A stretch of 64,000 nucleotides of DNA from a virus (IMGVR_UViG_3300006930_000009:3794-67793), one strand, 5' to 3'. Positions 5,131 through 44,856 are shown, counted from the stretch's first letter. The notes: generated from the letters alone by a model not told the origin. A program made the numbers and translations.

Positions 5131-5138
5131 TATATAAA
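5131..5138 (-). promoter_or_regulatory. TATA box (TTTATATA) of leaderless fibre gene
   Basis: 25 nt upstream of ATG 5106, in context AACTGTTATTTATATAGTT. Confidence 0.6.
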
Positions 5139-18680: not shown

Positions 18681-18716
18681 CCTATAGAAATGTTGAAAAG
18701 AATATATAAAGAAGGA

Positions 18717-26900: not shown

Positions 26901-27934
26901 TCTTTCAGGGATGCAGTGAGATCGGCTACCTGTTTCTTCAGATCGTCAATGATCTCCTGTGTGGCTTCAGGGACGGGTTTATCCGAATCTCCAACAAATA
27001 ACCGATCAAGGATCGGTTTAAAATCGGCATATAATTCGTCAAGGCTGGTGCGAATATCACCGATAGATGCCGTAACCGACTCACCCATTGATCGGGCATT
27101 TTCCGTGATCTTGGTAAATGCCGATGAGAGATCCCACGTCTTCTGAATGGTAGCGTCTGCTTCAGCAGCCGTATCATCTTTCCCTTTCTCGAATGCAAGC
27201 GATACCGGGATCTCAATCGGTTCCATTCCGGTAATACTTTTTGCAAACTTCTTCATATCTGCAACGACCGGGATCTGCACGGCAGTTACCTGCTTTTGCA
27301 GATCATCAAGATTTAACGACGCTCCTATCGTGATGTCAGGAATACTGGATACATCCACTATTGCCGGGATCGTAATAGGACCAGTTTCATTAGTAACTTC
27401 AGTGATGGTTGCTTTCGCATCCACGGTGATTGCATCAATAGATGCCGGAAGATTAGATAAATCTGCAATAATCGGGACAGTGAGTCCGGATATCTGCTCT
27501 TGTATTCCGGACCAGTCAAGAGTGGGATAAATAGGGATCTCCAGATGGGGGAGATCCTTCATCAGGTTTTGCGCAGCCTCGTCCTTCTGATTTTCAAGGA
27601 ACGACTGCATGACAATCGTTGGAGTGATATCAACCGGAACAGTGAGTTTCCAGTCTTTCCCTACTGATGTCTGAATTGAGGTGATGAGTTCATCGACATT
27701 ATCACTGGTGACGGTGATAGGGAGCGTAAATGCCTCAGTTGAATCGGCGATCCGGGTCTTGATCGTATCCAACATGGCAATGGTCTGATCATCAATAGAT
27801 TTTGTTAATGCCGCAAATGATCGCTCGATATCTTTCGTAGATGCCTCTACCAGTTTTAAGATATCATCAATGACTTTATCGGCATTACTGACAAACGTCA
27901 GCTTATATGTTGCATCAGACCCGTTCTGCTCCAT
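23969..27934 (-). CDS. Tape measure protein (1321 aa)
   Basis: Long alpha-helical protein with Ala/Gly/hydrophobic repeats, between tail chaperone and Dit-like gene. Confidence 0.9.
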   Translation of the reverse strand: MEQNGSDATYKLTFVSNADKVIDDILKLVEASTKDIERSFAALTKSIDDQTIAMLDTIKTRIADSTEAFTLPITVTSDNVDELITSIQTSVGKDWKLTVPVDITPTIVMQSFLENQKDEAAQNLMKDLPHLEIPIYPTLDWSGIQEQISGLTVPIIADLSNLPASIDAITVDAKATITEVTNETGPITIPAIVDVSSIPDITIGASLNLDDLQKQVTAVQIPVVADMKKFAKSITGMEPIEIPVSLAFEKGKDDTAAEADATIQKTWDLSSAFTKITENARSMGESVTASIGDIRTSLDELYADFKPILDRLFVGDSDKPVPEATQEIIDDLKKQVADLTASLKDATDKAKDGFDDSTDAVDKFKDGIDSSALAAMLAAEQFAVLGQRALAYFDTGMQKLIQSAGSAIHLLTMVGNATDEVMAKSMRATKGLLEDNDVSEMAAQLSGMYVAAEKIPGVLKTVTDHAHAMHLDIRDSFKEVTNLMTTSLNPEVFRQKFGQNGAAAMKMFREEMIKATKEMGVSSSSMLNPEQRMAARAQATDAVLRQFGQASEGADTLNESLTRFNENLSLIQQQLSGPFHDALTVILVPVNAFLEILNRLPGPLMYIIGSIATLGAGLTAGVGALIMYYKAAEMLGLNFKSVIGFLSQFRASIILTSIAQKVETISTLAQNAATWAMITTTETATGAKLGLMGSIRLLTVSLVTGTVAYLAQNAAVLAGIPIDEASALANLGLAASFDLLTASIIPATMALYAMIAPFLPIIAAIGAVVAALYLLWDVLDKGWDDSLLGQFFKWLSQYIPTVTPVIIGFGKLFEYLKEAVGGAMVYLGGLWNDFVSGFMEVINAITPFINELIKMVLGLFNIQIEDASIIGIFEAVIAAIKDCVKYLDESGFLSWLKDVVKWIGKIAAVILLFNLSPLIVSILAVTAVLWALIQALKWLYDTFKPLIDIIGAMGVHMSALSVITTGVAGPIGLLTGLVLSMKDHMGALPDVITPVSSALNSLMGIIKTLTSFSNPLTGTISLLTTLMSVVGKTSLKDIFNPGNVSQMIGSLTQFIGIVTAASNPLLMIQRIMETLGITVTDLATVGKSAFDTIMSGINSQIGSSLAYIKDVITFILSILDKLMHPFRTLQEIIMYLADRFAAFRVVAELVKGIFDKISDSVQAIVGALQWLTGIMKKLIDMINNFPPPPDWISNLAGGDFIGAGAKAAADAASSITKHDVTTTREKVSEVVTETKRESKQDTNQALSQMNDHLKNLNERPSTSNSVDMKGMNITIPITSGDIVEAINNGTVDAQKLGEALGRVISDNVIGKISHELSTWGI

Positions 27935-27974
27935 AGTATCTTATCGGTTGTATAAAAAGAGTGATAAAAGGAGG

Positions 27975-28321
27975 TCAGAGATTCTTCTCTTCCCTGCAAT
28001 ACCCGTCATCGGATACCACGAACCGCCGGGTGAATACTCCTCCGGGGAGATCACTTTTCGGTTTGGTTTTTGGTGCAGCAGGTTTCTTTACCACGGGCTG
28101 CTGTTTAGGTGTTGCGATAGACGTAGCGGCCTGTGTAACCGGTTGCATATCCTCATCGGTTTTGTACAGCGTAGATAACGCGTATACCCACCCGATCTGC
28201 TTTTCTAGGGGCCATGCTTTTACGACGTCGATATCAGTCCCGGTCTTAAGCGATATTACGTAAAGCGGGAGGTTCCGTCTAACGTTGTCTGAGAGTTCTG
28301 CCCCGAGTCCAGAAAATCTTC
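27975..28321 (-). other. -1 frame extension of tail assembly chaperone (lambda gpGT-like, fusion ~202 aa)
   Basis: The -1 frame is open from 28322 to TGA at 27975-27977 with no start of its own and reads ELSDNVRRNLPLYVISLKTGTDIDVVKAWPLEKQIGWVYAL...; candidate slip sites GAT TTT C (28318-28312) or TCG GGG (28306-28301). Confidence 0.7.
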
Positions 28322-28582
28322 GTCAGCATCTACCTTATGCTGATCCATGATCTGTTTCCCGACGGTAGTGACTCGCTTTGCATCCCAGCTGGCGATATCA
28401 GACTCTTTGAACCGGCGTTTCTTCCCACTGTCATCAAGAATGCTCTCCAGAATGAGCGTTTTGAACATGGAACCAAGTTTCTTTGTCGCCTGATAGTCAC
28501 CGATGACATCAAGTAACTCAAATCCGGTTAATTTACGAGCCGTATAGGTTTCACTACCCACGGTAATAGTATAGGTTTCCAT
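28256..28582 (-). CDS. Tail assembly chaperone (gpG-like)
   Basis: 108 aa between tube and TMP; overlapping open -1 frame. Confidence 0.75.
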   Translation of the reverse strand: METYTITVGSETYTARKLTGFELLDVIGDYQATKKLGSMFKTLILESILDDSGKKRRFKESDIASWDAKRVTTVGKQIMDQHKVDADEDFLDSGQNSQTTLDGTSRFT

Positions 28583-28625
28583 AACACTTAAATAATAAGA
28601 GAAGAAAGGTATTTAAACCTTTCGA

Positions 28626-29150
28626 TTAGTCAGAGTCCTTGAATGTCTTAAAGGTCATCGATCCGCTGGTGATATCTTCAGTGTTGTACTTCTCCGAGAT
28701 CTTAATTGCCAAACCCTGAACGACCACCTCATTTGCATCGTATGCAAATGTACCCGTGTTGATCTGGGTGATGATACAAGACGTACAATCAACGTTGATA
28801 TACCCACTCACGGAGAAGGATATCTGGAAAAGTAAGTTCTGACGCTTCGCCTTGATGAACTTTGACATTATCTTCGAGGTTACCCGAAGACGAATCGCCC
28901 ATGTCGGTTTGATGTGATGAAGGTTGAACCCAACAACGCCACGAAGAGACTCGATGTGAGTGACTTCGCGGTCATTGTTATACTCGAATGAAGTGAAATC
29001 ATCAACGGTTGTATCGAATGCGTGAAGACGAATATCTCTGACATCCCACTTGATGATATCCTCAGTCGTGCCTTCGACACCGCCGTGCAATGCATCATCG
29101 TTGTATGCACCGGCGTCGTAAAAAGTATCGGTAATAACTGTATCGGACAT
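28626..29150 (-). CDS. Tail tube protein (DUF3277-like)
   Basis: Beta-rich 174-aa protein immediately downstream of the sheath. Confidence 0.7.
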   Translation of the reverse strand: MSDTVITDTFYDAGAYNDDALHGGVEGTTEDIIKWDVRDIRLHAFDTTVDDFTSFEYNNDREVTHIESLRGVVGFNLHHIKPTWAIRLRVTSKIMSKFIKAKRQNLLFQISFSVSGYINVDCTSCIITQINTGTFAYDANEVVVQGLAIKISEKYNTEDITSGSMTFKTFKDSD

Positions 29151-29151
29151 T

Positions 29152-30462
29152 TTACACCTGTATGATCAGATCCATCTGGAATGTGTGAACATCTCCGGAA
29201 AGCTGTGCGGCGACCTTTACCCCACGAAGAATACGGTTTCCGCGATCTTCGGTGGAAATGGTATCAACGGTCGGCATCGTAATCGTATACGTGCTGATAG
29301 CCGCATCACGAAGCAGACGCTCCATTGCTGAACGCAGAGATACCCTTACCATGTCAAGACCGCTCTCAGTGAAAGGTATCTTTGCAGAGTTCAGACGGAG
29401 GGTAAGCATCGCATTGCGAAGCTGGCTGGATGAGTAGTACTCAGTACGCACGATATCGATGAACTTTGGCGAACCGCTGGCGGTTAACGAGTTGGATAAC
29501 CGATTGCTGGATGCCACGTTGATGATCACATTGATACCGGCAGTCTCAAGGGTGGCAATATCAGCGGCATCGAAATATGTCCCTACTGGAGTAAACACGG
29601 CTCTCCAGATCATTGAGTTCCATGGCCGGTTCAGGGCGAGAGCACCCAGTGCGACGGCACCAACGTCATCCTTCGGTATAGCAGCCTTATACTTACAAAT
29701 GACTGCCTTTGCAGCGCCCGGAATAGAGTCAGCATCGAATGTCACGACACCGGTAGCCTTATCGAGCGTGTAGTCAGTTGTAACGGTCTGGGATACTCCG
29801 CCTACGGTAATGACCGGGTCATTCGTAATCGGATAGTTAGGGATGTTGAATACGACCTTTGTGCCGTCACCGATGCCGATCTCCTGACCATTGGTAGTGA
29901 AATCAACCTCATTGGTGAAGGTAGGCTCGTTATGAGCAACGATAAATCCGTTTCGTGACTTGACATTGGTGCTGACGCAGGTAACGATATCGGTTGCCGT
30001 TTGGCCCGGAGCGTTTGTCATGGCAAATACCAGTTTGCAGGTATTGGCGATATCTACATATTCAGACACCAGCGGGTTGTTGACATAAATACCGGCGAAT
30101 ACAATGGTATCAATCGTGCCCTGAATTGCCAGTGGCTGGATGACCGCTTTTGCTGCTGCAATGTTATTTGATGTTGGCTTTCGGTCGGTCCCACAGGGTA
30201 TCCCCATGATATAAAACCGGGTAAGCCCCTGTGCCATAAGTGCCTGTGCAGCCCGTGCTACCGGAGAGATGCCAAGAAGCTTGTTTGTTGAGTCGTATTT
30301 GCAATGGTCAGCATAAACCTTTTCGAGAGTTGTGTACAGTTTGGGTTTATACTCCGTTGACTCAGACAGACCAAGGATCAGTGGGACTCCCCATGAAGTC
30401 TGGGATGCAACCATGGTCTCATCGACCACATTAATGAGTACTGATTCTGCTACGTCTGGAAT
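29152..30462 (-). CDS. Tail sheath protein (DUF3383-like) with inserted Ig-like domain
   Basis: FIDIVR...L.......KIPFTESG...GNRIL.GV...A.LSG.VH C-terminus; frame open upstream of track start 30429 to ATT at 30462 (PDVAESVLINVVDET). Confidence 0.85.
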   Translation of the reverse strand: MPDVAESVLINVVDETMVASQTSWGVPLILGLSESTEYKPKLYTTLEKVYADHCKYDSTNKLLGISPVARAAQALMAQGLTRFYIMGIPCGTDRKPTSNNIAAAKAVIQPLAIQGTIDTIVFAGIYVNNPLVSEYVDIANTCKLVFAMTNAPGQTATDIVTCVSTNVKSRNGFIVAHNEPTFTNEVDFTTNGQEIGIGDGTKVVFNIPNYPITNDPVITVGGVSQTVTTDYTLDKATGVVTFDADSIPGAAKAVICKYKAAIPKDDVGAVALGALALNRPWNSMIWRAVFTPVGTYFDAADIATLETAGINVIINVASSNRLSNSLTASGSPKFIDIVRTEYYSSSQLRNAMLTLRLNSAKIPFTESGLDMVRVSLRSAMERLLRDAAISTYTITMPTVDTISTEDRGNRILRGVKVAAQLSGDVHTFQMDLIIQV

Positions 30463-30510
30463 AACGCATCACCTGAGTAATCAGGCGATAGAAAAGTATA
30501 TAAATAAGTG

Positions 30511-31113
30511 TCAATATTGCGGGGTATTCCGCAAATCAACATAAAAGGTTTTGGGATCGGATTTCCAGTCCCCTTCCACGAATTCTACATCTCCGACAAC
30601 TTCAGCGATAGTCGGTAAAACCTGCCATATGGCAAACGGATACCGGATCGTGATATCAAACTGCTTGCGAAGAAGCCCGTCCTCTAAATGAGTAAGATCG
30701 GTTATCGGAGAGAGTTGCATCACTTCGGTGATATCACGGAGCGTATGATGACTCCATAAACTCATCTTTCGCATGACCGATTCCAACAACCCTACCGCAT
30801 TATACATATCAGACTGTGCCACATGTACATTTATCGACATCTGACATGTGTATCGCTGACCGACCAGATTTTCAACATATCGCTCATCTGTCCCGGCATC
30901 AGACCGGAGCATCATATTTACCGGGGAATGGTGTCCTCCGGCGTTTTGATCGCCAAAATAAGATATCGTAATAGCGACATCAGCCGATGAGAGCATGTCT
31001 CGAACTGAAGATAAATGAGCATAATCCGTGACTATTGTATAGGTTTTCCCAGAAAAAGATATAGAAGTAGGGATGGATTTGAATACATCTACCTCTAGGT
31101 TTGGCGGTCTCAT
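30511..31113 (-). CDS. Neck / tail terminator protein
   Basis: 200 aa ending RKQFDITIRY, directly upstream of sheath. Confidence 0.6.
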   Translation of the reverse strand: MRPPNLEVDVFKSIPTSISFSGKTYTIVTDYAHLSSVRDMLSSADVAITISYFGDQNAGGHHSPVNMMLRSDAGTDERYVENLVGQRYTCQMSINVHVAQSDMYNAVGLLESVMRKMSLWSHHTLRDITEVMQLSPITDLTHLEDGLLRKQFDITIRYPFAIWQVLPTIAEVVGDVEFVEGDWKSDPKTFYVDLRNTPQY

Positions 31114-31397
31114 CGTTTCATCCGGATGATCCCCATAAAGGTATCCATGAGGGCGGCGGTGGATTCGATGAATGACCGGGCCTCACTCACAATACGGGCA
31201 ACCTCTTCTTTTGATATCTCACATCCGGCTTCCCCTGTGGGATCTACGGCATCGTCGATTGCATCAATGGTATCCCGGAATTCTGCAATACAAGAAAGCA
31301 AAAGCTTCCTCAGGTTGCCAAACAAAATACCAAATATGACAGTCCATATGATCGATGCGACGAACCATATCTGATACGGATCCTGAAAATCAATCAT
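31110..31397 (-). CDS. Small membrane protein, possible holin-like
   Basis: One N-terminal hydrophobic helix (IWFVASIIWTVIFGILFG) followed by a charged domain. Confidence 0.45.
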   Translation of the reverse strand: MIDFQDPYQIWFVASIIWTVIFGILFGNLRKLLLSCIAEFRDTIDAIDDAVDPTGEAGCEISKEEVARIVSEARSFIESTAALMDTFMGIIRMKR

Positions 31398-31405
31398 ACT
31401 ATATA

Positions 31406-31870
31406 CTACTCCGATTTTCCATTTATATCAGCGTCAGGTTTGATCATCCGGATGATATACTCTTTTTCCCGGGGGATGATGGTTCGAAACAACGGACGTT
31501 CGGGAATAGATTCTGTACCATACTCAAGCCATAAGGCGATCTTTGCCCGTTCAGGACAGTTAAACACGCCTACCAGTAATGTAACTTCCCCATTCTTTCC
31601 TTCAATGACCCGGTAATCCAATGAGTCGCGAAGCAGACCAGTTTCATGCCATGCAAGCCCGTCCCCGCCGGAAGGAGACCAATCTAAAAAAGAGAGAGAA
31701 TGCTGATTATCAATGGTGTGTTTTAACTGAGTGACAAGATGTTTTCCGATTGCATGGTAATCCGGTTTAAACGTCTTGATTTTTTGCAACTTCCGTTTTA
31801 AGTTGGATAGATCCGCCTTCACTTGGATCATTATCAAATAACTCCAGTATCCGTTTCTGACAGTCTTCAC
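31406..31870 (-). CDS. Virion morphogenesis / tail completion protein (Mu gpG / HK97 gp10-like)
   Basis: L.ETG.LRDS+.Y...A...EYGT..IP.RP.F motif; likely true start 31831. Confidence 0.75.
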   Translation of the reverse strand: MKTVRNGYWSYLIMIQVKADLSNLKRKLQKIKTFKPDYHAIGKHLVTQLKHTIDNQHSLSFLDWSPSGGDGLAWHETGLLRDSLDYRVIEGKNGEVTLLVGVFNCPERAKIALWLEYGTESIPERPLFRTIIPREKEYIIRMIKPDADINGKSE

Positions 31871-32123
31871 AACAGGCGACGAAGATGATCTTCTGATATT
31901 TCTTTGGGAATGAGATGAGTTGATCCCGCTTCTGCCGTACCGTCAATTTAATCAGGTTATTACATTCCGGGTTGAAACAGGGAATATGAGTAATCTGATC
32001 ATCAATAGATGGCTGGTTGGCATACTCATCCAGTGCCTGTATTACATCAGGAGTGACGATCTCAGTGCGATTCTCTCCATCGGCAAGATAGTATTTGCCA
32101 CCTTTTTTACTGATATGTTTCAT
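31767..32123 (-). CDS. Hypothetical protein, possible Zn finger
   Basis: CFNPEC...CCEDC cysteines; operon context. Confidence 0.55.
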   Translation of the reverse strand: MKHISKKGGKYYLADGENRTEIVTPDVIQALDEYANQPSIDDQITHIPCFNPECNNLIKLTVRQKRDQLISFPKKYQKIIFVACCEDCQKRILELFDNDPSEGGSIQLKTEVAKNQDV

Positions 32124-32353
32124 GACACCACCAGACGTAAGGGATCAATGGTTAATTTCCGTTTCAAATACACAATCTCATTCATATATTCTTCGCCTTC
32201 CACTTCACCGGTTTTTAGTTTCATGACGACTCCGTATAACAGGATCTTTTCCCGCTCGATTTTACAGGTGGATCGCTCTTCGCAGTTAATCGTGCATATG
32301 CCCTGATGAGGACATATGTAATAGATTACTTCTTCTTCCAACTCGGTTGCCAT
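32120..32353 (-). CDS. Small Cys-containing hypothetical protein
   Basis: CPHQGICTINC....C; ATGA-type coupling with the next gene. Confidence 0.5.
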   Translation of the reverse strand: MATELEEEVIYYICPHQGICTINCEERSTCKIEREKILLYGVVMKLKTGEVEGEEYMNEIVYLKRKLTIDPLRLVVS

Positions 32354-32850
32354 ACGGGTTTCATCACCTCAGGTTCTGTGGATTTGGGATCGATATCGAC
32401 AACCGGTTTGGATGTATCGATACATACTCCGGTAGTTGCTGATGTTTTCTGTTCGTCAGTCACCATTGATGGCGGTGGGGTACCAGCGTTCTGCTGTAAT
32501 CTGACTAAATGATACGTATATCGTACAACACCGAGTTTTGCCCAATATGGGAGTTTTTGAGGACGGGCATGCACTTCCCAATGAGACTGCTCCCCATCCA
32601 GTTCCTCGATGATGACCCGATCACGGGGAGACATACTGGTCTCGGTATACAGGCGACGATCCCCGACATTGTAAATTGCCTGTGGGGTACGGGAGATCAT
32701 CTCAAATGTCACATCTTCCCAATGTCCTTTAATCGGTTCCGTCTCGATAATCTCCGGGACGAATATCCCGTTTGCGGTATGAGCGTGTTCCAACACGGTG
32801 ACTTTAAATATCCCGTGCTGGTAATCCATTACTTCAAGACACGTTTTCAT
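32326..32850 (-). CDS. Head closure / stopper protein
   Basis: G.Y..GDRRLYT.......DRV...GE..WEV motif; follows connector gene. Confidence 0.65.
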   Translation of the reverse strand: MKTCLEVMDYQHGIFKVTVLEHAHTANGIFVPEIIETEPIKGHWEDVTFEMISRTPQAIYNVGDRRLYTETSMSPRDRVIIEELDGEQSHWEVHARPQKLPYWAKLGVVRYTYHLVRLQQNAGTPPPSMVTDEQKTSATTGVCIDTSKPVVDIDPKSTEPEVMKPVWQPSWKKK

Positions 32851-32852
32851 GA

Positions 32853-33347
32853 TCAGTAATTGTCATACATGACAAACATCGGGGCTTCCAATTTGAAGAG
32901 CTCGCTCTCGATCTGTTTATTCAAAATCTCCAGTGCCTGTTCGTAACTTCCTCCCCATTGGATAGATAACCCTCCTTCTGATACTCCGGTAGGATTTCGA
33001 TTCGGGTTTGGTACTAACATCTGAGAGATCAGATCCGCTGTTGCCATCATTCGCTGGATCTTCTTTCCAGTTGGATCATCGATATTGATGACATAGGCAT
33101 TACTCAGCCAGTAATCCGCCCAACTTGTAGAGGAATACACAATTCCTCCGGTGGTTGCCGGCATGAGGATAGATGGATCATTACTCGGGTACAACGTAAG
33201 ACAGGATCCCTGACCCTGATACCGTTTAAAAAGGAAATCTGCAGCGGCATCAAGAGCATCCTGTATAACCTCATCAGGGAATGTGTACGGAGGGGTAGAA
33301 TCCCCTACGGCAAACCGGACCGATGCAATTGATGCAGCCACGATCAC
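32853..33347 (-). CDS. Head-tail connector (adaptor) protein
   Basis: VR..+GD...PYTFPDE.IQ..LD and SEGGLSI.W motifs. Confidence 0.7.
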   Translation of the reverse strand: MIVAASIASVRFAVGDSTPPYTFPDEVIQDALDAAADFLFKRYQGQGSCLTLYPSNDPSILMPATTGGIVYSSTSWADYWLSNAYVINIDDPTGKKIQRMMATADLISQMLVPNPNRNPTGVSEGGLSIQWGGSYEQALEILNKQIESELFKLEAPMFVMYDNY

Positions 33348-33739
33348 TCACTCTTTTTTGTGACGGGTTTCTTCCGGGCAGGTGCCGTCTTTGGCGTAGA
33401 TGCTACAGCCTTCTTCACTTCGGATGCGATCTGAGATGAGATCATATCCACAACCGGAGTTGCAACAGCCCCTTCCTCTACCGGGAAATCGTCTTCCGTG
33501 ACGTTGGTAGTGAGCGGGTCAGGCCAGTCTTTCAGGGACTCTTCCTTCTTTGCAGGAGGGGTCTTATCCCGGTTAACGGAACCAAGAATGATAATATTGC
33601 CTCGTTTGATGGAGCTCTTCAGACCGGTGCTCCATTTCTCCCGATCTCCCTCAATGACAAACGTATTTCCTTTGGTGTAGGTGTTACCGTTAAATACAAA
33701 ACGGGCCGCACGAACTTCCACCTCAAGTTGGTCTTCCAT
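33344..33739 (-). CDS. Small head-completion-associated protein with low-complexity tail
   Basis: First gene of head-tail operon; TATA 33763-33770 lies 24 nt upstream; Lys/Pro-rich C-terminus. Confidence 0.6.
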   Translation of the reverse strand: MEDQLEVEVRAARFVFNGNTYTKGNTFVIEGDREKWSTGLKSSIKRGNIIILGSVNRDKTPPAKKEESLKDWPDPLTTNVTEDDFPVEEGAVATPVVDMISSQIASEVKKAVASTPKTAPARKKPVTKKSE

Positions 33740-33850
33740 ATTTAAACGTTTTCATTAAAGAGTATATAAATCTTTCTATTAATACGATTGTTTTTTATAG
33801 TTTCATAGCAAATAACATCCTACGTGTGAATAACACGGGAGAAGTTCACC

Positions 33851-34288
33851 ATGGTAAATTTTGAAGTCAAGGGTATCGGTCTCACAACTGAGATCGCCCG
33901 CACAAAACCTCAGGACCGCGTCGTTGTTGCAACTGCCGAACTGTCCGGAAAGACCGCGGGGAAGCTCTTCGTCGGTATCGATGATATTGATCCAAGCACA
34001 CCAAACGCATTCGGACTATTCTTCAATGGGAAACAAGTCGATGTGAATGATAATGAAACCTACATGCAGACCAACACTGCCAAAGAGCCGAAGTCAGGGT
34101 GGAAGACCTACGCGTTCGATGTCCCAATGAGATACCTGACTAACGATCCGAAACCGGCAACATACACCATCCAGTTCCTTCTCGGCACCCTCAAAGATGA
34201 GGTTTTCACACTGGAGTCCACAAGCAAAGTATATATTCTTGAAGTCCCTCAGGATGAGATCCGCACCGGGGAAGTCACTCCTGAATAA
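33851..34288 (+). CDS. Hypothetical beta-sandwich (Ig-like?) protein
   Basis: 145-aa ORF divergent from head-tail operon; alternating beta-strand pattern. Confidence 0.6.
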   Translation: MVNFEVKGIGLTTEIARTKPQDRVVVATAELSGKTAGKLFVGIDDIDPSTPNAFGLFFNGKQVDVNDNETYMQTNTAKEPKSGWKTYAFDVPMRYLTNDPKPATYTIQFLLGTLKDEVFTLESTSKVYILEVPQDEIRTGEVTPE

Positions 34289-34293
34289 CCCTA

Positions 34294-34316
34294 TTTTTAA
34301 CCAGTTTATATAAGTT
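34294..34316 (+). promoter_or_regulatory. Extended promoter TTTTTAACCAGTTTATATAAGTT of PAS gene
   Basis: TATA 26 nt upstream of ATG 34338; 19 nt identical to 44856-44838 on the minus strand. Confidence 0.7.
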
Positions 34317-34337
34317 CTTATCGCCATTTCATAATTC

Positions 34338-35627
34338 ATGGATTTGGCAGAGCTGAGACAATACTCCGAACTCCTCATACAGGAAGATGAGCGGATACGG
34401 TCCAGTGAACAGAACCTCATCACGCTATTTCAAAATATTACTGATTTCATCTTTATCATCGATGCGGTCACTCATACCGTCATTGATGTAAATAAATCCG
34501 TATTAGATACATTTGGGTATACGATTGATGAAATCAAAGGAAAGCATATCTATGATCTCCATCCGGATCGATCGCAGGAAGACATTGATATGTGTTTTAT
34601 GGATGACGCCTGTTCCTGTGAAGTACCGTTTGTAACGAAAGAGGGAAAGGAGATCCCGTCGGTAACCAAGATCACGAAGTTTATCTGGGATGATAACGAC
34701 GCGTACGTATGCATTGCCCGGGATATGACGGAGCGGTTTGCCTATGAAGCAGAACTCAATACCCGGAATATGGAACTTGAAGTGGCTCTTGAAGAGTTAC
34801 GGAATACCGAAGATGAGTTAAAGTCGCAGATTAACAACATCACCTATCAGAATTCCTTAATCCGGGCAATGTGTGACAATGTCCCAGATATGATATGGGC
34901 AAAGGACGTAAATAATAACTATATTTTCGCCAATCAGGCAATTGCAGCAAACCTTTTAAATGCCACATCCACGTCAGAGCCCTTAGGGAAAGACGATCTG
35001 TATTTTGCCGAACGGGAACGGTTACTCCATCCAAACGATCCAAACTGGCATACATTTGGAGAGATTTGTAAAAATAGCGATGAGATCGTTCTCCGGGAGA
35101 AGAAGACCCGGAGATTTCAAGAGTTTGGAAATGTTAAAGGGAAGTTTGTATGGCTTGATGTCTACAAATCTCCGTTCTTTTTTGGATCTGAACTTATCGG
35201 AGTGGTTGGATCAGGGAGGGATGTTACTGAGGAACAATCATTAACTAATGCGATGATAAGTCAGAAGAACTTCCTTGAAGCGTTACTGGAAAATCTCCCC
35301 TTACCCATATTTTACAAGGATATGGACGGGAAGTTCATCGATGCAAATGGGGAGTTTTGCAATTTCTACGGAGCATCACTCTCCTACATTATCGGGAAAA
35401 CTACGCAGGATCTCTTCCCGGAGGATGCAAAATATCTTAATGAGAAAGAAGAAGAGTTGAAGAAAACCGGGCGGGTAAAGTTTTATTACGATGCCTATGA
35501 CAAGCACATGGTAAAGCATCGGATTATCATCATTAAAACCTTGCACCATGATGCGAATGGGAAAGCAATCGGGATCATTGGATGTGGCATTGGAATTGCC
35601 CATACCGCTCTTATGGAAGGATTATGA
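34338..35627 (+). CDS. Three-PAS/PAC sensor protein without output domain
   Basis: PAS signatures: DFIFIID...VN....FGY..DEI.GK; PDMIWAKD...Y.FAN...WHTFGEICKNSD...GRDVTE; PLPIFYKDMDGKFIDAN. Coiled coil ELEVALEELRNTEDEL. No HisKA/HATPase/REC. Confidence 0.9.
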   Translation: MDLAELRQYSELLIQEDERIRSSEQNLITLFQNITDFIFIIDAVTHTVIDVNKSVLDTFGYTIDEIKGKHIYDLHPDRSQEDIDMCFMDDACSCEVPFVTKEGKEIPSVTKITKFIWDDNDAYVCIARDMTERFAYEAELNTRNMELEVALEELRNTEDELKSQINNITYQNSLIRAMCDNVPDMIWAKDVNNNYIFANQAIAANLLNATSTSEPLGKDDLYFAERERLLHPNDPNWHTFGEICKNSDEIVLREKKTRRFQEFGNVKGKFVWLDVYKSPFFFGSELIGVVGSGRDVTEEQSLTNAMISQKNFLEALLENLPLPIFYKDMDGKFIDANGEFCNFYGASLSYIIGKTTQDLFPEDAKYLNEKEEELKKTGRVKFYYDAYDKHMVKHRIIIIKTLHHDANGKAIGIIGCGIGIAHTALMEGL

Positions 35628-36070
35628 CCGATTTAAACCGGCCGATAGGTGCAGATGCACTAGGGATCACTCTGAAAGATGTACTAAACATGTACCTCAG
35701 AGAAGTGGAAACGCTACAGAAAACAATGATCCGACTAGAGCGGAGAATTGAGAGGGATATCGATCGAATCGATACCGATATCCGGCAATATGGTGTCACC
35801 ACTAGAGAAGACATCAATTTACTCCGGGACGAAGTCGCTGCCATGAGAGACCATATGTCATCCCTTGAGCTCAATGTCAGTGAATTAAATAATACCCTGT
35901 CCACCATGATATCTGATGCAGAGAGCCGGAGAAAAGATGCAGATCATGAACATGCATTACAGATACGAGAATTGCAGTTAAAATCCGGAGTGATTGGAGG
36001 CGGAGCAGGTGGGCTTATCGCCACATGTCTCCCTCAAATCATCGAACTGGTTCAGCAGATCATTAACTGA
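35624..36070 (+). CDS. Coiled-coil protein with C-terminal Gly-rich hydrophobic segment (XhlA/holin-like)
   Basis: ATG 35624 overlaps PAS stop (ATGA); heptad repeats then GVIGGGAGGLIATCLPQIIELV. Confidence 0.65.
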   Translation: MTDLNRPIGADALGITLKDVLNMYLREVETLQKTMIRLERRIERDIDRIDTDIRQYGVTTREDINLLRDEVAAMRDHMSSLELNVSELNNTLSTMISDAESRRKDADHEHALQIRELQLKSGVIGGGAGGLIATCLPQIIELVQQIIN

Positions 36071-36275
36071 CCGTATACCCGAGAGAGATCATCTTTTCTT
36101 TTACCCTCTCCATCAAATCCGCATCAATGTCATCAGGAATGGGATCCCACTCTCCATCGGAGTGTTTGAATAATGCGGTATATAACCTGAGTTGTGTTCT
36201 GGTAATCTCGTCTTTACATACCCATCCTACCCGGGGATCATATACCGCAAGATCCCCATCGATATACATCTTCAT
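36063..36275 (-). CDS. Small hypothetical protein coupled to the metallopeptidase gene (possible immunity/partner)
   Basis: 70 aa, ATGA overlap with the 36272..37405 stop. Confidence 0.65.
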   Translation of the reverse strand: MKMYIDGDLAVYDPRVGWVCKDEITRTQLRLYTALFKHSDGEWDPIPDDIDADLMERVKEKMISLGYTVS

Positions 36276-37405
36276 TGCTTCGCCTCTTTTAATACATTAA
36301 CGATGAAATTAAAATAATCCGGATCTTTCTGATAGAAATGAATCGGATCCTGATAGAGGTATTGAATACCCATTGACAATATCTCTCCGGGTCTATCTTT
36401 ATATAACTTTCCACAATAGGGATTGGGGAAATTATCCGGTTTACATATCTCCGTATCGTTATAATTCTTTCCGGTAGCCTCCTTTAATGGGACAACGGGT
36501 GAATCTCCTGTCCGTTTTGCAAAAAACTCATTGCACCGGTTCTGGATATTTCCGGATTTCTCCAGTATGTGAGCCATCTCATGAACAAATGCTCTCCGGA
36601 AAGCTGAGTATTTCGCCGTCCAGCTGAACGATAAGCAGATGAAATTGTTATTATCACCCATCTCAGATTTAAATGATCGGTTCCCGGCAAGCGGATAGAT
36701 ATATGTAGGGCCTGTGGAAGGAATACCTTTGGTGATCTCCGCAAACCACTCTTTCGCTGGTTCAATATGTTCGTATAAATGTTGGGCAGCGAGATTATTA
36801 TGAAAGCTTTGTAACGGCACATCCGGATGATACTTCCGTATTTCAGACGTATCTGGTGGGATAGTTGTCGTATCCATGATATATGACGGCTGGTTCTCTT
36901 TCCCTTTATTGATATACCCGGCGAGAGCCTGATAAATTGGCTGCATCGCTTCCATCATCTGGGTCTCATATTTATTGATCTCCGGATCAACCTTCCAATC
37001 GATATATCGGAGAATTTCTTCAATCTCCTTTCTGACTTTATTTCGATCTTTCACATTACCTTTGATCTTTTTTAATTCAGTTAGTTGATCAGATAATACA
37101 TTTGCTCTCGTATACATCTCCTTCCGCTTATCCACATGGACCTGTAATTGACTGGTTATTGAGGTATATTGTTCCATATGGGGTTGAAATATGGTATTGA
37201 CATCGACTGTTTCCGGTTTAGCAACCGTTGCAAATTGATCTAATGGCTTATTCGGATTTGTGCGTTGGATTTCGTCAGTTTCATAATATTTCGCTCCTCT
37301 GGTAGTGGTTTTCACCTGAGCGTTTTTCGGCACCTTATCCGGATGTGCCGTGACATATACCCGGTATAAATCACATAATATTCTTTTACGGATGGGAGAA
37401 AACAT
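36272..37405 (-). CDS. N-terminally tagged protein with C-terminal zincin-like metallopeptidase
   Basis: HEMAH at 36583-36569, third-ligand segment EILSMG; YCGKLY and DPDYF motifs like phage MuF-associated peptidases; shared N-terminal tag. Confidence 0.8.
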   Translation of the reverse strand: MFSPIRKRILCDLYRVYVTAHPDKVPKNAQVKTTTRGAKYYETDEIQRTNPNKPLDQFATVAKPETVDVNTIFQPHMEQYTSITSQLQVHVDKRKEMYTRANVLSDQLTELKKIKGNVKDRNKVRKEIEEILRYIDWKVDPEINKYETQMMEAMQPIYQALAGYINKGKENQPSYIMDTTTIPPDTSEIRKYHPDVPLQSFHNNLAAQHLYEHIEPAKEWFAEITKGIPSTGPTYIYPLAGNRSFKSEMGDNNNFICLSFSWTAKYSAFRRAFVHEMAHILEKSGNIQNRCNEFFAKRTGDSPVVPLKEATGKNYNDTEICKPDNFPNPYCGKLYKDRPGEILSMGIQYLYQDPIHFYQKDPDYFNFIVNVLKEAKQ

Positions 37406-37482
37406 ACTATAGGGTCAATAACATGAGATAAAAACAGTAGTCAGTCGATAGGTTTTTATTTTCCGATTGCAAATAATTTATT

Positions 37483-38331
37483 GTGACAGTCATTGATAAC
37501 ATTCTGAATGCATTACAGCAACAGAATATGACGTCTGAGGAGATTCACACTCAGATTGGCGGAAAGCGTACTACGGTAAAAACCGAACTATCCAAGATGC
37601 GGCGAATGGGTCTGGTAAGTCAAACAGATACTCACTATACCATTACAAAATTAGGCTTATTACAGGCATTGAAAGCAAGTAAAGACGTATCCGTGCGGAG
37701 TTACAATCTTGGTATTGCGTCCAGAGATAACCTCTATAAACAACTTCCCAATCGGCAGATCTTCACCACCGCCGATATCTATCGGGATGTGTTGAGGACG
37801 GAAAAGACCGAGGCACTGAAATCTCAGGTAAAGTATTCACTCCAGCACCTACTGAAGGAGCGGAAGATTAAACGCGTGTCCCCGATCGATCAACCCACGG
37901 CTAAACTGGTACAATATGTGAAGGGTGTTGAAGAGGATGAATGGATATGCTCTGTATGCCAGCAGATTCTTCCGGCAAACTATTTCGATGTGATAAACTA
38001 TGGAATGCCGGGTGCGAAATGCCATGCATGTCGTACAGATGCCGAATTTGTACATGCGGAACCGGTTTCGGTAATGGATTTCATTACCGCTACCGATATT
38101 GAGGATCCGGGACTGCATGCAATGGAAGCCGTGCAGATGGCAATGGAACAGGTGTCTAATGGATCCCTGAAATTCATCGAAGAACAGGTAGGGATGATAT
38201 CCAAGTCACTCGGGAAGATTCACTGGATGGGTGAGCATATCGCCAGTATCGATAAGTCCATGCAGGAGATGGTGAAGATTAATAAAGCCACCCATGACCT
38301 GTTTGTGCAACTTGCAACCAAAAAACAATAA
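37483..38331 (+). CDS. Transcription regulator: two winged-HTH-like domains, Zn finger, coiled coil
   Basis: MTSEEI...GGKRTTVKTELSKMRRMGLV...Y.ITKLG; CSVC...CHAC. Confidence 0.7.
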   Translation: MTVIDNILNALQQQNMTSEEIHTQIGGKRTTVKTELSKMRRMGLVSQTDTHYTITKLGLLQALKASKDVSVRSYNLGIASRDNLYKQLPNRQIFTTADIYRDVLRTEKTEALKSQVKYSLQHLLKERKIKRVSPIDQPTAKLVQYVKGVEEDEWICSVCQQILPANYFDVINYGMPGAKCHACRTDAEFVHAEPVSVMDFITATDIEDPGLHAMEAVQMAMEQVSNGSLKFIEEQVGMISKSLGKIHWMGEHIASIDKSMQEMVKINKATHDLFVQLATKKQ

Positions 38332-38443
38332 CTTCTATTTTAGTTTAATTTTATCATTTAACACCGAACTACATATTTAATACTATTCTATATTAAATTT
38401 GTAATACAAACCTATATACGCTAGTATTGGAAAATGATAATGT

Positions 38444-39124
38444 ATGCGAGCATATCTCATTCCTGATGGGTTAAACCTGCCTATCAAGCAACCGGTAAAT
38501 TGGGATATTACCTCATGGGCGTATAATGACGCTCCATTGATTGATGGGGGAATCTTTTGCCGGGGATGTTTCATCAAAGTGATTGACCGGACCTGCACCA
38601 CTGAACACCAGCAAAAGACCATCGATGCGTTTGTCAAGGAATATGGGAGAGAACCTACCGATATCGAACGAATGTTCCTGCTTCGGATCACCATGCTTGA
38701 GACGGCAGTGAAATGTCTGAATGAGGATATGGTAAATACTACCGACCAGTGGGTGTCCCGGGATGATGAAGGGAAATTGAGAGTGACTGATTGGACTGAT
38801 GCAAAGGTACCGGATGAACGGATCAAAGACTACTCGCTGAAAGAATTCAATCCAAATACCTGTTTCTCGATTGCATCGGCTGCAGCACGGGGAGCCCGGA
38901 GTTCCAATATCATCTGTATCAATAAAGATTTACAGGATCGGGTAACGTATGAGATTGAATCCATGCTGAATGGAAAGTCATCATCTGATGGTCTGTGGTA
39001 TATCAAAACATCAGCCATTGAATGGATCAAAACAAAGATCCCGGAGACTGATACGGATGTGTTTGTCATCAAAGGATCAGATACTACCTGCAAAATCACG
39101 GTCAGCAAAAGACCGGAATCTTAA
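38444..39124 (-). CDS. Hypothetical protein
   Basis: 226-aa ORF with CRGC. Confidence 0.6.
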
Positions 39125-39151
39125 TATTTTCTCACATCCTATTTTATTGCC

Positions 39152-39346
39152 ATGCGGAGAGCGTGGACACAAGAAGAGATCGATCAGGTAACCTATTTAT
39201 ACTGTTATACAAATAAATCCGCAGCAGAAATAGGGCAAATTATTGGCCGGACACAGGGATCTGTATCATCAAAAATAGGTACGTTAGGGTTAAAGGATGA
39301 ACGTTACTTACCGCCGTTTAAGCAAACGCACGGGCAGCAAACGTAA
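39152..39346 (+). CDS. Small HTH protein (GcrA/Myb-like)
   Basis: WTQEEI......KSAAEIG..IGRT.GSV..K...LGL. Confidence 0.7.
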   Translation: MRRAWTQEEIDQVTYLYCYTNKSAAEIGQIIGRTQGSVSSKIGTLGLKDERYLPPFKQTHGQQT

Positions 39347-39749
39347 TATTCGTCGTCCCGACAGTGATATCCACAGCCGTGCACTGGAAGAGTTTCATAC
39401 CACCAGCGGTACCTTTTGCTACAGGAACGAACGCACATGACATCTCTGCTCCGGCATCAAAATCATCTGCCCGAATGGGTTCAGTTGTAGTTACCACATA
39501 GATACCATTTGTTTTTGCATCGGTCTGATCTTTCACCAGTACCCGGTTCCCGGCAGCAAGGGTGACGCCATCGATAGTAGCCCCGGCTGCAAGTCCGGTA
39601 GCGAGATCAGCAATGTTTGCAGTAGTCGCTACAACACAAGCAGTCTTCATCAGTGAGGCTTTTAAAAGAGCGTTGATAGCGAGAGTGGCGGATTGTTCCT
39701 CAGCAACATCAGTCTGATTGTTCCGGATTTGATCCATGAATGTTGACAT
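39318..39749 (-). CDS. Stand-alone virion fibre-type domain protein
   Basis: TIDGVTLAAGNRVLVKDQT...NGIYVV motif common in phage structural proteins; TATA ~25 nt above ATG 39749. Confidence 0.7.
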   Translation of the reverse strand: MSTFMDQIRNNQTDVAEEQSATLAINALLKASLMKTACVVATTANIADLATGLAAGATIDGVTLAAGNRVLVKDQTDAKTNGIYVVTTTEPIRADDFDAGAEMSCAFVPVAKGTAGGMKLFQCTAVDITVGTTNITFAARAFA

Positions 39750-39972
39750 GACCAAATGGTAGGAGAGCCCCGGATATAAAAGATCGTCTCTTTAAGATAT
39801 CCTGCATTTCTTCCACGGTATAATGATTGTCACAGGGTGGAATCTTCTTTCGTCTGTCACGGACTTCATCAACCCGACTCTGCCAGTCTCCCATATCGCA
39901 ATACGGGTTCCATCCATCGATATCATGCCAGAAACAGCATATCTCACAGGGGCGAAGAGTCCGGTCAATCAT
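39709..39972 (-). CDS. Small Cys-rich hypothetical protein
   Basis: CEICC...C...C; operon context. Confidence 0.5.
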   Translation of the reverse strand: MIDRTLRPCEICCFWHDIDGWNPYCDMGDWQSRVDEVRDRRKKIPPCDNHYTVEEMQDILKRRSFISGALLPFGHVNIHGSNPEQSD

Positions 39973-39984
39973 AAAAATAGAGTA

Positions 39985-40374
39985 TTACAGAAGTGCAGTG
40001 ACTTCTGATTCTTCGATGATAGTAATCTCGCGTTCCTTGATATACAGGTAAACCTTGGACTTGGTATCCTTTCTACCCAGCTGGATTACTCCAGTGAATT
40101 CGGCATCAACGTCAAAGAAGTACGGTTCCCCGAGAATGTTCTGATGACGTTTAACGAAATCACCGTCAAACTTGTATTTTGGATGTGTCTTGGTTAACAC
40201 GCGAATCCAGAGAGGGCATGCGGACCAGTCATCATGATTGGTCTTCCCGTCCACGAGGAGTTTAATGCCCCAGAACTGACCATCATTTGCAAAATATACA
40301 TCGCCGAAACCGGCGATTGCTATGGGATCATTACACTTATCCCAATTAATAGGCTTACGCTGCGATGCTGCCAT
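39985..40374 (-). CDS. Hypothetical protein
   Basis: 129-aa ORF with intergenic TATA-like element upstream. Confidence 0.6.
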   Translation of the reverse strand: MAASQRKPINWDKCNDPIAIAGFGDVYFANDGQFWGIKLLVDGKTNHDDWSACPLWIRVLTKTHPKYKFDGDFVKRHQNILGEPYFFDVDAEFTGVIQLGRKDTKSKVYLYIKEREITIIEESEVTALL

Positions 40375-40399
40375 ACATACATGTTATCAACGGTAGTAT

Positions 40400-40684
40400 T
40401 TATACCTGCTCCAATTCCTGACGCAAATTGTTCAGCATTTCTAATTTTGACCGGCGATCTTCAGCCCGAGCATCACAGATAACTGCATTGCAATATTCGT
40501 TAAATGCATTGGTGATGATCTCAAAATGAGGATCGTTGACATTAATACTAATGGTAGCCCTGCAATTATCCGGAATAGAAATGGTAATATACTTTTTCGT
40601 ATTGGTGATACATCCAAACCGGTTCACAACATCCCGGTTTACTTCATCCTCTTTTGAGTGGAACACATATCCCATACCATACAT
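40400..40684 (-). CDS. Hypothetical protein
   Basis: 94-aa ORF. Confidence 0.55.
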   Translation of the reverse strand: MYGMGYVFHSKEDEVNRDVVNRFGCITNTKKYITISIPDNCRATISINVNDPHFEIITNAFNEYCNAVICDARAEDRRSKLEMLNNLRQELEQV

Positions 40685-40755
40685 ATTTCATTCATGATGA
40701 TTTAAACGATTGGGTATACAAAATAATTATATCATCCAGCGACGAATGATAGCAT

Positions 40756-41013
40756 ATGCTTGTCGAATTGAAATGCATTATTGATATCCCGGAAGACCGG
40801 GTAGATGATTTCTGTTACGATATCACAACTGAAATCGAAAACATGCAGGAGAAAGGCACGGGGAGATCATTCCAACAGATCAAATCAGAGTCGATCGCCA
40901 CCGTAATAAATACGGTGATGAATGCTGATAAAGGATATCAGCGATACATCGTGTTCAAAAATGCAGAGTGTTCATCAGAGTTCTTCCGGGTCCACAATAT
41001 CAGTCACCGCTGA
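40756..41013 (+). CDS. Hypothetical protein
   Basis: 85-aa ORF, convergent on the tagged gene. Confidence 0.5.
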   Translation: MLVELKCIIDIPEDRVDDFCYDITTEIENMQEKGTGRSFQQIKSESIATVINTVMNADKGYQRYIVFKNAECSSEFFRVHNISHR

Positions 41014-42306
41014 CTCTTCTTCAACATCAGGGCCATTAAATATTTTATCTGATTCTTCATCGGTCATATCATCAGGTGTATCAAAGTCAAAATTTGCAAT
41101 ATGATCCGGCTCCCATACGCCATCATTTTCATGATCAATTGTTATTACCCGTTTTGACTTTGACATATAGATAACATCTTTTTTGATATAATCAGGTAAT
41201 GTATCCCTATAGTTTCCGGGAAGTGCATGCACCACCGGCTCCCATACACTCATAGGTAATTCAAGCGTAGTGAAATCATTGATAATATCATATGCAGTCG
41301 ATGCATTAGGCTTTTTCTTCATTAACTCAAACGCAACCGGTTTTAACTTATCCATTAACCGATTATTAATATCGTCATTTGTGAGAATTTTCCCGGTTTC
41401 TTTATCCAACACAGAATTATCTTTTGTATACACGATCGAGTCTTCCACTTCCTTCGCAATAGCATGAGTTGATTTCGCTACATAATCGGGTTCATGAATA
41501 CGAAGCATTGCAGTGGTAGCTTTTAACGGTTCTGATGGGTTTACATCCTTAATGTCGAAGAGATCTACATGTTCTTCATAAAATGCATTGGCAATGTTTA
41601 GAAGATGATTTTTTGGATAGGCTCCAACTGGAGAATCAAATGGTTCCCGGTGATTGGCGATAATATCTTCAAATTCATCTGCCCGGGCAATAGCCATATT
41701 TACTTTATCGACAAGTTCAGGGAACGTACCTATCTTTTTTAAATAATAATTAATCTGCCGTAATTTACTTTTACTCTTATCTAAAGACTCGCTGATGGTG
41801 CGTTTTTGATTAATATAACTGCCAACTTTATGCCGGGTAGACTGCGCCTCATGACTGGATGGATCCGTATCAATTTTACGTATTAAATGATCAGCGAGTG
41901 CGTATTTCGCACCATATTGTTTCCTCTCAGATGTAAATCGATCATCCTGATGATACTCTTCTAAATTGTCTATAGCGTACGTATCTTCAGCATCTCTCAA
42001 TGATTCAGGTAATTCAGCCGGAATATATTTTGCATATTGCCCATACGGAAGATTACCGGTCGATTTCGTATGATAGCTATAGGATGGGTCTTTCTTAACT
42101 TTCTCCAAATAGGCCCGACGGTCTGCTAAAATAGACTCTTTCGTATGAGTGGATAGATCCGGATTATTACTATAGGGTATCGTATAATACCGCCCACCCT
42201 GTTCACCGGTTTCGACCGATCGTCCTTTCGGAGCATCTTTCCCATCGGAAAGATACACTTTCCGTAGTGCTAAATCATAAATAATCTTCCGGCGGAGGTG
42301 CAGCAT
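40975..42306 (-). CDS. N-terminally tagged protein, unknown C-terminal domain, acidic tail
   Basis: 443 aa; begins RRKIIYDLALRKVYLSDGKDAPKGRSVETGEQGGRYY. Confidence 0.75.
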   Translation of the reverse strand: MLHLRRKIIYDLALRKVYLSDGKDAPKGRSVETGEQGGRYYTIPYSNNPDLSTHTKESILADRRAYLEKVKKDPSYSYHTKSTGNLPYGQYAKYIPAELPESLRDAEDTYAIDNLEEYHQDDRFTSERKQYGAKYALADHLIRKIDTDPSSHEAQSTRHKVGSYINQKRTISESLDKSKSKLRQINYYLKKIGTFPELVDKVNMAIARADEFEDIIANHREPFDSPVGAYPKNHLLNIANAFYEEHVDLFDIKDVNPSEPLKATTAMLRIHEPDYVAKSTHAIAKEVEDSIVYTKDNSVLDKETGKILTNDDINNRLMDKLKPVAFELMKKKPNASTAYDIINDFTTLELPMSVWEPVVHALPGNYRDTLPDYIKKDVIYMSKSKRVITIDHENDGVWEPDHIANFDFDTPDDMTDEESDKIFNGPDVEEESAVTDIVDPEEL

Positions 42307-42340
42307 ATATACATTTAAAGGAAAGGTGTGTATTTAAACG

Positions 42341-42574
42341 TCATTCAGTATACGGATTACCGCCATCAATAACATATCCCGGGTCTGTAGGGGGCTGTGT
42401 TTTATATATTTCAAGTAATAAATCTATCGCTTCCCCTAAGGTTTTCGGGCAATGGCCTACCAGTTCAATCCATGCGGCTTCATCGTCTAAATTATATGTG
42501 AGAATGTGAGATATAACGACATCCTGTTCGGTATTTGTGCAATCAATACGACGAATATCGTCAATAAATGTCAT
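42341..42574 (-). CDS. Small hypothetical protein
   Basis: 77 aa, ATGA coupled to upstream fibre gene. Confidence 0.55.
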   Translation of the reverse strand: MTFIDDIRRIDCTNTEQDVVISHILTYNLDDEAAWIELVGHCPKTLGEAIDLLLEIYKTQPPTDPGYVIDGGNPYTE

Positions 42575-43895: not shown

Positions 43896-43906
43896 AAAAA
43901 TAAAGA

Positions 43907-44833: not shown

Positions 44834-44856
44834 ACTATATATAAACTGGTTAAAAA
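44834..44856 (-). promoter_or_regulatory. Extended promoter TTTTTAACCAGTTTATATATAGTT of fibre operon
   Basis: TATA 26 nt upstream of ATG 44812; 19-nt identity with PAS promoter. Confidence 0.7.

Follow-up and report, generated by a model that had tools for sequence, protein, structure and literature searches.

Why does a tailed virus carry the gene of a triple-PAS sensor that has no recognisable output domain, and what is the role of the small membrane-type protein encoded directly behind it? The two genes, here called A and B, lie in a stretch of 64,000 bp (the window) of a 67,793-bp IMG/VR virus record, which is about 46% complete according to CheckV. The coordinates of the locus are compiled in Table 1. 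A preceding sequence-only reading had taken the PAS gene to be virus-encoded, and the content of the window bears this out: it encodes a large terminase, portal, HK97-like capsid, tail sheath, neck and baseplate J proteins and therefore represents a large myovirus-type genome. The carriers of the pair are best explained as large tailed viruses of methanogens with Methanospirillum-like hosts, and the bins of Methanospirillum MAGs include one viral contig that harbors the A-B pair.

Table 1. Features of the A-B locus, with positions counted from the first nucleotide of the window
Feature	Position	Strand	Basis or remark
Putative archaeal TATA box TTTATATA	34305..34312	+	26 nt upstream of the start codon of gene A (34338)
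Gene A, 429-aa output-less sensor: N-helix, PAS1, helix, PAS2, PAS3	34338..35627	+	Pfam, AlphaFold2, Foldseek
PAS1 (residues 37-129)	34446..34724	+	Pfam PAS_9/PAS, AlphaFold2
50-residue helix (residues 131-180) between PAS1 and PAS2	34728..34877	+	AlphaFold2 DSSP
PAS2 (residues 185-295), accessory domain	34890..35222	+	resembles Methanospirillaceae sensors
WHTFGEIC motif (residues 237-244), N-terminal end of PAS2 helix F-alpha	35046..35069	+	sequence, AlphaFold2
PAS3 (residues 324-419)	35307..35594	+	Pfam, AlphaFold2
ATGA stop/start overlap, preceded by GGAAGG	35624..35627	+	TGA of A at 35625-35627, ATG of B at 35624
Gene B, new family, 148 aa; a single continuous helix ending in an anchor-like segment	35624..36070	+	profile search, AlphaFold2
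N-terminal motif ITLKDVLNMYLREVE, best-conserved part of B	35666..35710	+	family alignment
Gly-rich uncharged segment SGVIGGGAGGLIATCLPQII	35984..36043	+	predicted tail anchor or oligomerisation helix

The sequence upstream of the PAS gene is informative about host and expression. The octamer TTTATATA is present in 17 copies in the window versus 4.4 expected, an approximately four-fold enrichment that was reached in none of 100 shuffles, and several copies precede a start codon of the matching strand by about 25 nt. Enrichment and spacing are thus indicative of archaeal TATA promoters whose transcripts have a short leader or none, and they support an archaeal host. The PAS genes of the contigs L004, L011, L012 and L025 are likewise preceded by TATA-like boxes. 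For the pair, this implies a two-gene operon with its own predicted archaeal promoter and a leader that is short or absent. Further copies of the octamer are found, for example, at positions 5131-5138, 18703-18710, 33763-33770 and 44838-44845. The A-B pair is encoded on the plus strand, opposite in orientation to the flanking structural genes on the minus strand. Its convergent neighbor (36272-37405, minus strand) encodes a 377-aa protein with a match to phrog_33618 and a weak one to a "minor head protein" PHROG; it is syntenic in L001 (11959-13086) and unlinked to the PAS pair in other lineages. A possible target of a diversity-generating retroelement is a 301-aa protein (43907-44812, minus strand) with an N-terminal match to Mtd_N, the major tropism determinant (E=2.7e-7), and a PAPS-reductase/DUF3440 (IbrA-like) protein (47205-48407) is encoded in a plus-strand, AT-rich islet by the capsid gene.

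The start codon of gene A is backed by the N-termini of its homologues. Pfam reports PAS families only, above the gathering score and in three places; PF00989, PF13426 and PF08448 reach 81-84 bits against cut-offs of 22-27, with at most three stretches per family. The AlphaFold2 model (pLDDT 93.7, based on a 40-sequence alignment) comprises, in addition to the elements of Table 1, a helix of residues 3-33 ahead of PAS1 and a helix of residues 297-319 between PAS2 and PAS3. The profile matches together with the three modeled five-stranded PAS folds place A in the PAS domain superfamily. A six-residue helix (420-426) follows PAS3, and the protein ends about 10 residues past this domain. Neither a kinase nor an HTH or other output domain was detected with Pfam and NCBIfam, and the combination of HisKA/DHp and HATPase_c after the sensor is absent from A in both databases, so that it does not qualify as a two-component histidine kinase; the kinase homologues P0007 and P0008 run 240 aa beyond its end point. 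Pfam and AlphaFold2 hence agree on the architecture originally read from the sequence, namely PAS-coiled coil-PAS-PAS, terminating after the third PAC without kinase or DNA-binding output.

The best solved structural match of A in Foldseek is PpsR (4hh2) minus its HTH, followed by DosP and LOV-kinases. The helix of residues 131-180 is a probable dimerisation coiled coil, comparable to the Q-linker of PpsR, and A is probably dimeric because it combines the N-terminal helix with this 50-residue inter-PAS helix, as in PpsR. PAS1 resembles the PAS domain of a haloarchaeal sensor (3bwl). PAS3 resembles that of BvgS (6zj8) and is devoid of the D-I/V-T motif that closes PAS1 and PAS2. A PAS3-type domain adjoins the partner gene in all six lineages in which the upstream domain could be typed. 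The PAS3 domains of L004, L011, L012, L016, L023 and L027 mostly contain D/G-C-N at the position of ArcB Cys180 and the BvgS "CN", and the window has D-A-N in this place; the cysteine-containing version is a possible, not universal thiol-redox site.

The partner protein B is modeled by AlphaFold2 as a single uninterrupted helix of residues 17-147 (pLDDT 83). Apart from the N-terminal motif ITLKDVLNMYLREVE, which we infer to be a candidate docking site for the PAS protein, its conserved parts are DIRQ[YW] and D-x-x-H-x-L-x-I directly ahead of the tail. All 16 members of the family harbor a Gly-rich uncharged run of 16-25 residues near the C-terminus, followed by 0-16 residues. The KD19 maxima of this tail are 1.3-2.1 and borderline (1.3-1.5) in several members, a composition consistent with either a tail anchor or a glycine-zipper oligomerisation helix. 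B yielded at most sub-threshold coiled-coil matches in Pfam, PHROGs, NCBIfam and PADLOC. The PADLOC defence and toxin-antitoxin models matched neither A nor the B of the window, and distant B members gave weak coiled-coil matches only. DUF7201, which had been suggested by ESM Atlas, was discarded, as there was no match to its own record even at E<=10. B is not matched in 50,697 isolate phage records. Its profile has one match in 201 Methanomicrobiales genomes, which corresponds to a viral contig, and B was not found in the other 200 genomes, proviruses included. The B family is restricted to viruses.

The overlap between the stop codon of the PAS gene and the ATG of its partner, noted from the sequence at the outset, was located as an ATGA. 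Among the junctions of 10 loci, eight show an overlap of 4-13 nt and two a gap of 1-2 nt, and most of them have a GGAGG-like element before B. On the basis of this layout, A and B are predicted to be translationally coupled. The pair is present in at least eight distinct viral lineages, represented by the 10 loci examined, with differing gene neighborhoods; the combination of PAS gene and B occurs in the window, L001/L002/L013, L004-L008, L011, L012/L014, L015, L016, L023/L024 and L027. Full-length relatives of A on the viral contigs L001/L002/L013, L004-L008/L017, L011 and L012/L014 have a size of 432-438 aa and an identity of 40-57%, and a B homologue (36-53%) lies directly downstream of each. 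The contigs L001, L002 and L013 (178, 114 and 34 kb) are syntenic with the window. In L004-L008 and L017 the pair resides beside genes for DNA polymerase B, a histone-deacetylase-family protein, thymidylate synthase, HNH and TnpB, in L011 beside a dNMP kinase gene, and in L027 between tail-fibre and tail-tube genes. The neighborhoods accordingly comprise structural genes, DNA polymerase B/HDAC/ThyA, dNMP kinase, RNase H/thymidylate kinase and tail fibres. In L004-L008, which were binned as Methanospirillum, the histone-deacetylase-family gene (PF00850) is located directly after the pair, for example at 5662-6630 in L004. A gene-neighborhood survey in other viruses had been proposed as a check of the linkage, and this linkage is retained in 10 of 10 loci.

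Among 1.84 billion representatives, the exhaustive profile search with B retrieved 34 clusters, of which 14 reach E<=1e-10. Wherever the upstream DNA of distant members is readable, B is preceded by an overlapping or abutting gene whose size varies. The sensor of L023/L024 has 290 aa and consists of PAS1, helix and PAS3 without PAS2, with identities of 29% (PAS1) and 41% to the matching parts of A; the sensor of L027 (177 aa) is composed of a coiled coil and one PAS3-like domain. The coupled upstream ORF of L025 (110 aa) has no Pfam match and exhibits a PAS-like strand pattern only, and PAS-ending fragments lie upstream of B in L015 and L016. Since B is kept while the size of the sensor varies, the constant core consists of a PAS3-type domain and B, to which a sensor with one to three PAS domains contributes. 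A fused PAS-B protein was not found, which is weak evidence. It is likely that A and B work as one sensor-partner unit. One lead is that the [I/F]-[T/S]-x-[K/R]-D motif of B might replace the missing "DIT" helix of PAS3 in trans; the PAS protein of L015, which retains its own post-PAS coiled coil, runs counter to this idea.

PAS2 differs in distribution and probably in provenance from the rest of the sensor. The WHTFGEIC motif, from whose His and Cys a cofactor had been conjectured, is strongly conserved in 40 homologues: W237, H238, G241 and C244 reach at least 90%, and F240 is invariant. In the AlphaFold2 model, H238 is located two residues before F-alpha and C244 inside its first turns. F-alpha is the helix that bears the haem histidine in FixL and DosP, and a cofactor bound via His238/Cys244 is plausible. 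No solved relative of PAS2 was found by sequence. An analogy of C244 to the redox cysteines of ArcB, judged by equivalents of the redox-active Cys180/Cys241, was rejected, as the identity to E. coli ArcB is 21% (BLASTP) and C244 aligns with no ArcB cysteine. PAS2-like domains occur in seven of 41 genomes of the Methanospirillum family, and PAS2 is 46-59% identical to domains of multi-PAS ORFs (579-1275 aa) from Methanospirillaceae, the binned viral contig excepted, versus only about 30-35% for PAS1 and PAS3. In a DNA search of window positions 24001-44000 against 121 Methanospirillaceae genomes, the PAS2 stretch alone produced matches (34805-35210, 66-67% identity), and CRISPR-spacer-type matches were absent from the same comparison. 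PAS2 is thus a host-like, probably captured domain, judging from its similarity, and its donor cannot be named because bacterial kinases carry PAS2 domains of equal similarity. It is missing in the 290-aa, 177-aa and 110-aa versions of the sensor and represents an accessory add-on of the 430-aa subfamily.

A possible clue to the function of B is provided by phage proteins of Firmicutes. A wider alignment search with B also reached a 119-aa family, phrog_1893, whose function is unknown. The hhalign probability between both families is 90.9% with 14 sequences and 94.6% with five core sequences, values that are probably inflated by coiled-coil composition, as a repetitive coiled-coil protein scored 96% on the coiled coil alone; a CCDC90-like protein reached 34%. 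The alignment is end to end and covers the DIRQ[YW] motif and the Gly-rich tail. Searched against PHROGs directly, members of the B family had marginal matches only and none to phrog_1893; the homology of both families is probable on grounds of the profile alignment. Holin and endolysin directly follow the phrog_1893 gene in Lactococcus phage CHPC836 and a phage-plasmid of Vagococcus, and in Lactococcus phage r1t the member ORF46 is one gene away from them. The Vagococcus element (CP093385.1, 78.9 kb, phage-plasmid-like, with ParA) harbors the cassette of phrog_1893, holin and glucosaminidase/amidase twice (L049, L050). The position just upstream of holin and endolysin is also that of xhlA in PBSX.

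The initial label "XhlA/holin-like" holds for B with respect to architecture, as B combines a long helix with a single C-terminal hydrophobic segment like XhlA, and it fails with respect to family and context. XhlA (PF10779) does not match the B of the window at E<=0.1 and is absent among 25 of the 58 Pfam families matched by 16 B members at E<=0.05; its profile is touched by one of eight phrog_1893 members (E=0.023). Holins are characterised by one or more clear TM helices, a charged C-terminal tail and a gene beside that of the endolysin; B differs from them in having one borderline hydrophobic segment at the extreme C-terminus and no endolysin neighbor. No holin, lysin or other lysis enzyme adjoins the pair in the window or the nine related loci, and the archaeal-virus loci scanned lack a consistent holin-like multi-TM neighbor. 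These absences count against a strict lysis role, as do the borderline hydropathy of the tail and the probable inflation of the hhalign values. The earlier proposal of a sensor that gates lysis or egress is hence somewhat strengthened by the alignment with phrog_1893 and the position of its genes and weakened by the possible coiled-coil artefact and the missing linkage to a lysis enzyme. We regard control of lysis or egress as a possible, rather doubtful output of the pair.

Different readings of the locus have to be weighed against this background. The simplest one is that A represents a recently truncated host kinase that drifts without function beside an unrelated ORF. A indeed stops where kinases go on, and one bacterial kinase homologue, P0006 in L009, is genuinely broken. 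However, length, domain order and coupling are maintained at 36-57% identity across lineages, and the substitution pattern speaks against a drifting remnant: between lineages pS is about 0.8 (saturated), compared with a pN of 0.27-0.43 in A and 0.31-0.48 in B, and the near-identical contigs L012, L014 and L020 show omega values of 0.26-0.36 (A) and 0-0.1 (B). Purifying selection acts on both genes. Instead of recent truncation, relaxed selection and unlinked genes, which the sequence-only reading had named as the picture opposed to its own, we found linkage in 10 of 10 loci and selective constraint; A is therefore not a drifting kinase remnant, and this explanation retains next to no credibility. 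P0006 itself, once considered a sixth output-less homologue, was rejected as a broken bacterial kinase in three ORFs within an LptD/SurA-type, non-viral neighborhood. It is split into a 443-aa PAS part, a 53-aa HisKA and a 132-aa HATPase (L009, 10001-12017), and it is a pseudogene or a programmed break, because the identical break is present in two assemblies. The second of the two original hypotheses supposes a decoy, in which A heterodimerises via PAS2 with multi-PAS kinases of the host and silences or rewires their signalling as a dominant-negative partner, with B only tethering A to the membrane. The identity of PAS2 with the large Methanospirillaceae proteins and its position as the sole part of window 24001-44000 with nucleotide similarity to this family fit such a scenario, and stand-alone PAS/LOV proteins that act by heterodimerisation, for example VIVID, are established. 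However, the three short sensor versions drop PAS2 and still keep B, PAS1 and PAS3 are much less host-like, and the invariable coupling to a virus-specific membrane partner is left unexplained. As the core function, the decoy is accordingly weakened, and we consider it unlikely.

The conspicuous arrangement of the pair could alternatively reflect a moron-type conflict cassette, with B as membrane toxin and A as sensor or antitoxin, serving superinfection exclusion, abortive infection against rivals or addiction. A compact two-gene unit with its own promoter, inverted relative to the flanking structural genes, at positions that vary between viruses, and with a small membrane-type second product whose reading frame begins before the preceding gene has ended is what one would look for in such a cassette. 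The search for known systems argues in the other direction, as PADLOC returned nothing beyond coiled-coil noise, the search of the 200 other genomes, cellular sequence and proviruses alike, did not find the pair, and neither an integrase nor a lysogeny context was seen near it; we therefore rate a conflict role as decidedly unlikely. If the pair served morphogenesis, B and its relatives in phrog_1893 would be assembly or fibre chaperones encoded at the end of the tail module, and not lysis proteins, with A tuning assembly to the host state. This idea is prompted by the pair between tail-fibre and tail-tube genes in L027, by the tail or neck-passage genes that precede phrog_1893 and by the structural genes around the pair in the window, but three lineages place the pair in replication and nucleotide-metabolism modules, and a soluble chaperone with a conserved hydrophobic tail would be unusual. 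It appears highly improbable to us.

The interpretation that we favor, tentatively and at slightly less than even chances, is that of a kinase-free, virus-specific sensor-effector cassette in which A senses, B acts at the membrane and a lysis- or egress-linked event is the most likely output. Transcription of A and B would start at an archaeal promoter of their own, and their translation would be coupled. A would be a cytoplasmic dimer that reads one or more intracellular signals, such as a small molecule or the redox state, and additional PAS domains, here PAS1 and the host-like PAS2, would add inputs. B would form a long coiled-coil helix that its Gly-rich C-terminal segment attaches to the membrane on the cytoplasmic side. 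We infer that PAS3 of A binds the conserved N-terminal helix of B and that the signal alters this binding; the oligomeric or membrane state of B would change in consequence and bring about a membrane event, presumably tied to lysis or egress by analogy with the XhlA-position proteins of Firmicute phages. The pair probably allows the virus to tie a membrane event, possibly the bursting of the cell, to the state of its host. It is located in replication-type modules in three lineages, and late expression is thus not assured. A more specific version, in which A senses the methanogen's redox or energy state and releases or restrains a tail-anchored B, thereby timing egress, would turn the pair into a sensor-gated membrane-lesion system (holin-like or XhlA-like), the first of its kind in archaeal tailed viruses; we consider this rather unlikely.

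Little is known about the exit of tailed archaeal viruses from their hosts, and genes for holins, the hole-forming proteins, "remain elusive" in archaeal virus genomes (PMC10791045). If the sensor-gated lesion pair proves true, it would be this "elusive" hole-forming component of archaeal head-tail virus lysis (PMC10791045). The pair is a concrete candidate for the signal-dependent control of a membrane step in viruses of methanogens, which are relevant to methane-producing digesters and sediments. It resembles a modular signalling device without kinase or DNA-binding parts, in which the PAS-partner core is constant and viruses add PAS domains, one of them host-like. B represents a new, virus-only and membrane-anchor-like family that is always PAS-coupled and probably related, at a distance, to lysis-cassette proteins of Firmicute phages.

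Several known systems share single traits with the pair. XhlA of the Bacillus subtilis prophage PBSX (PF10779) is, like B, a small coiled coil with one C-terminal hydrophobic segment, and phrog_1893 (r1t ORF46) has the DIRQ[YW] motif and the Gly-rich tail in common with B. In contrast to both, B is devoid of an adjacent holin or endolysin and belongs to viruses of an archaeal host without murein; the XhlA-position proteins of Firmicutes lack a coupled PAS gene, whereas B is always preceded by one. On the side of the sensor, VIVID and PpSB1-LOV are short proteins without enzymatic output that act by binding partners, but they consist of a single domain and, unlike A, have no dedicated coupled membrane partner. 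PpsR/CrtJ (4hh2), the partner of AppA, shares with A the three PAS domains and the long helix after the first one and is regulated through protein-protein contacts on helices; it ends in an HTH and binds DNA, whereas A has no HTH, and the identity is 12-14%. PAS domains were not found in archaeal or methanogen viruses in a full-text literature search, and the known virus-encoded PAS proteins comprise the kinase of Atu_ph07 and several stand-alone PAS proteins in BFVD. A functional precedent is VqmA-Phage of vibriophage VP882, a virus-encoded PAS receptor of a host-related signal that triggers lysis (PMC8284805). VqmA-Phage acts transcriptionally via a DNA-binding output, whereas A, which has no output domain, is paired with a membrane-type protein.
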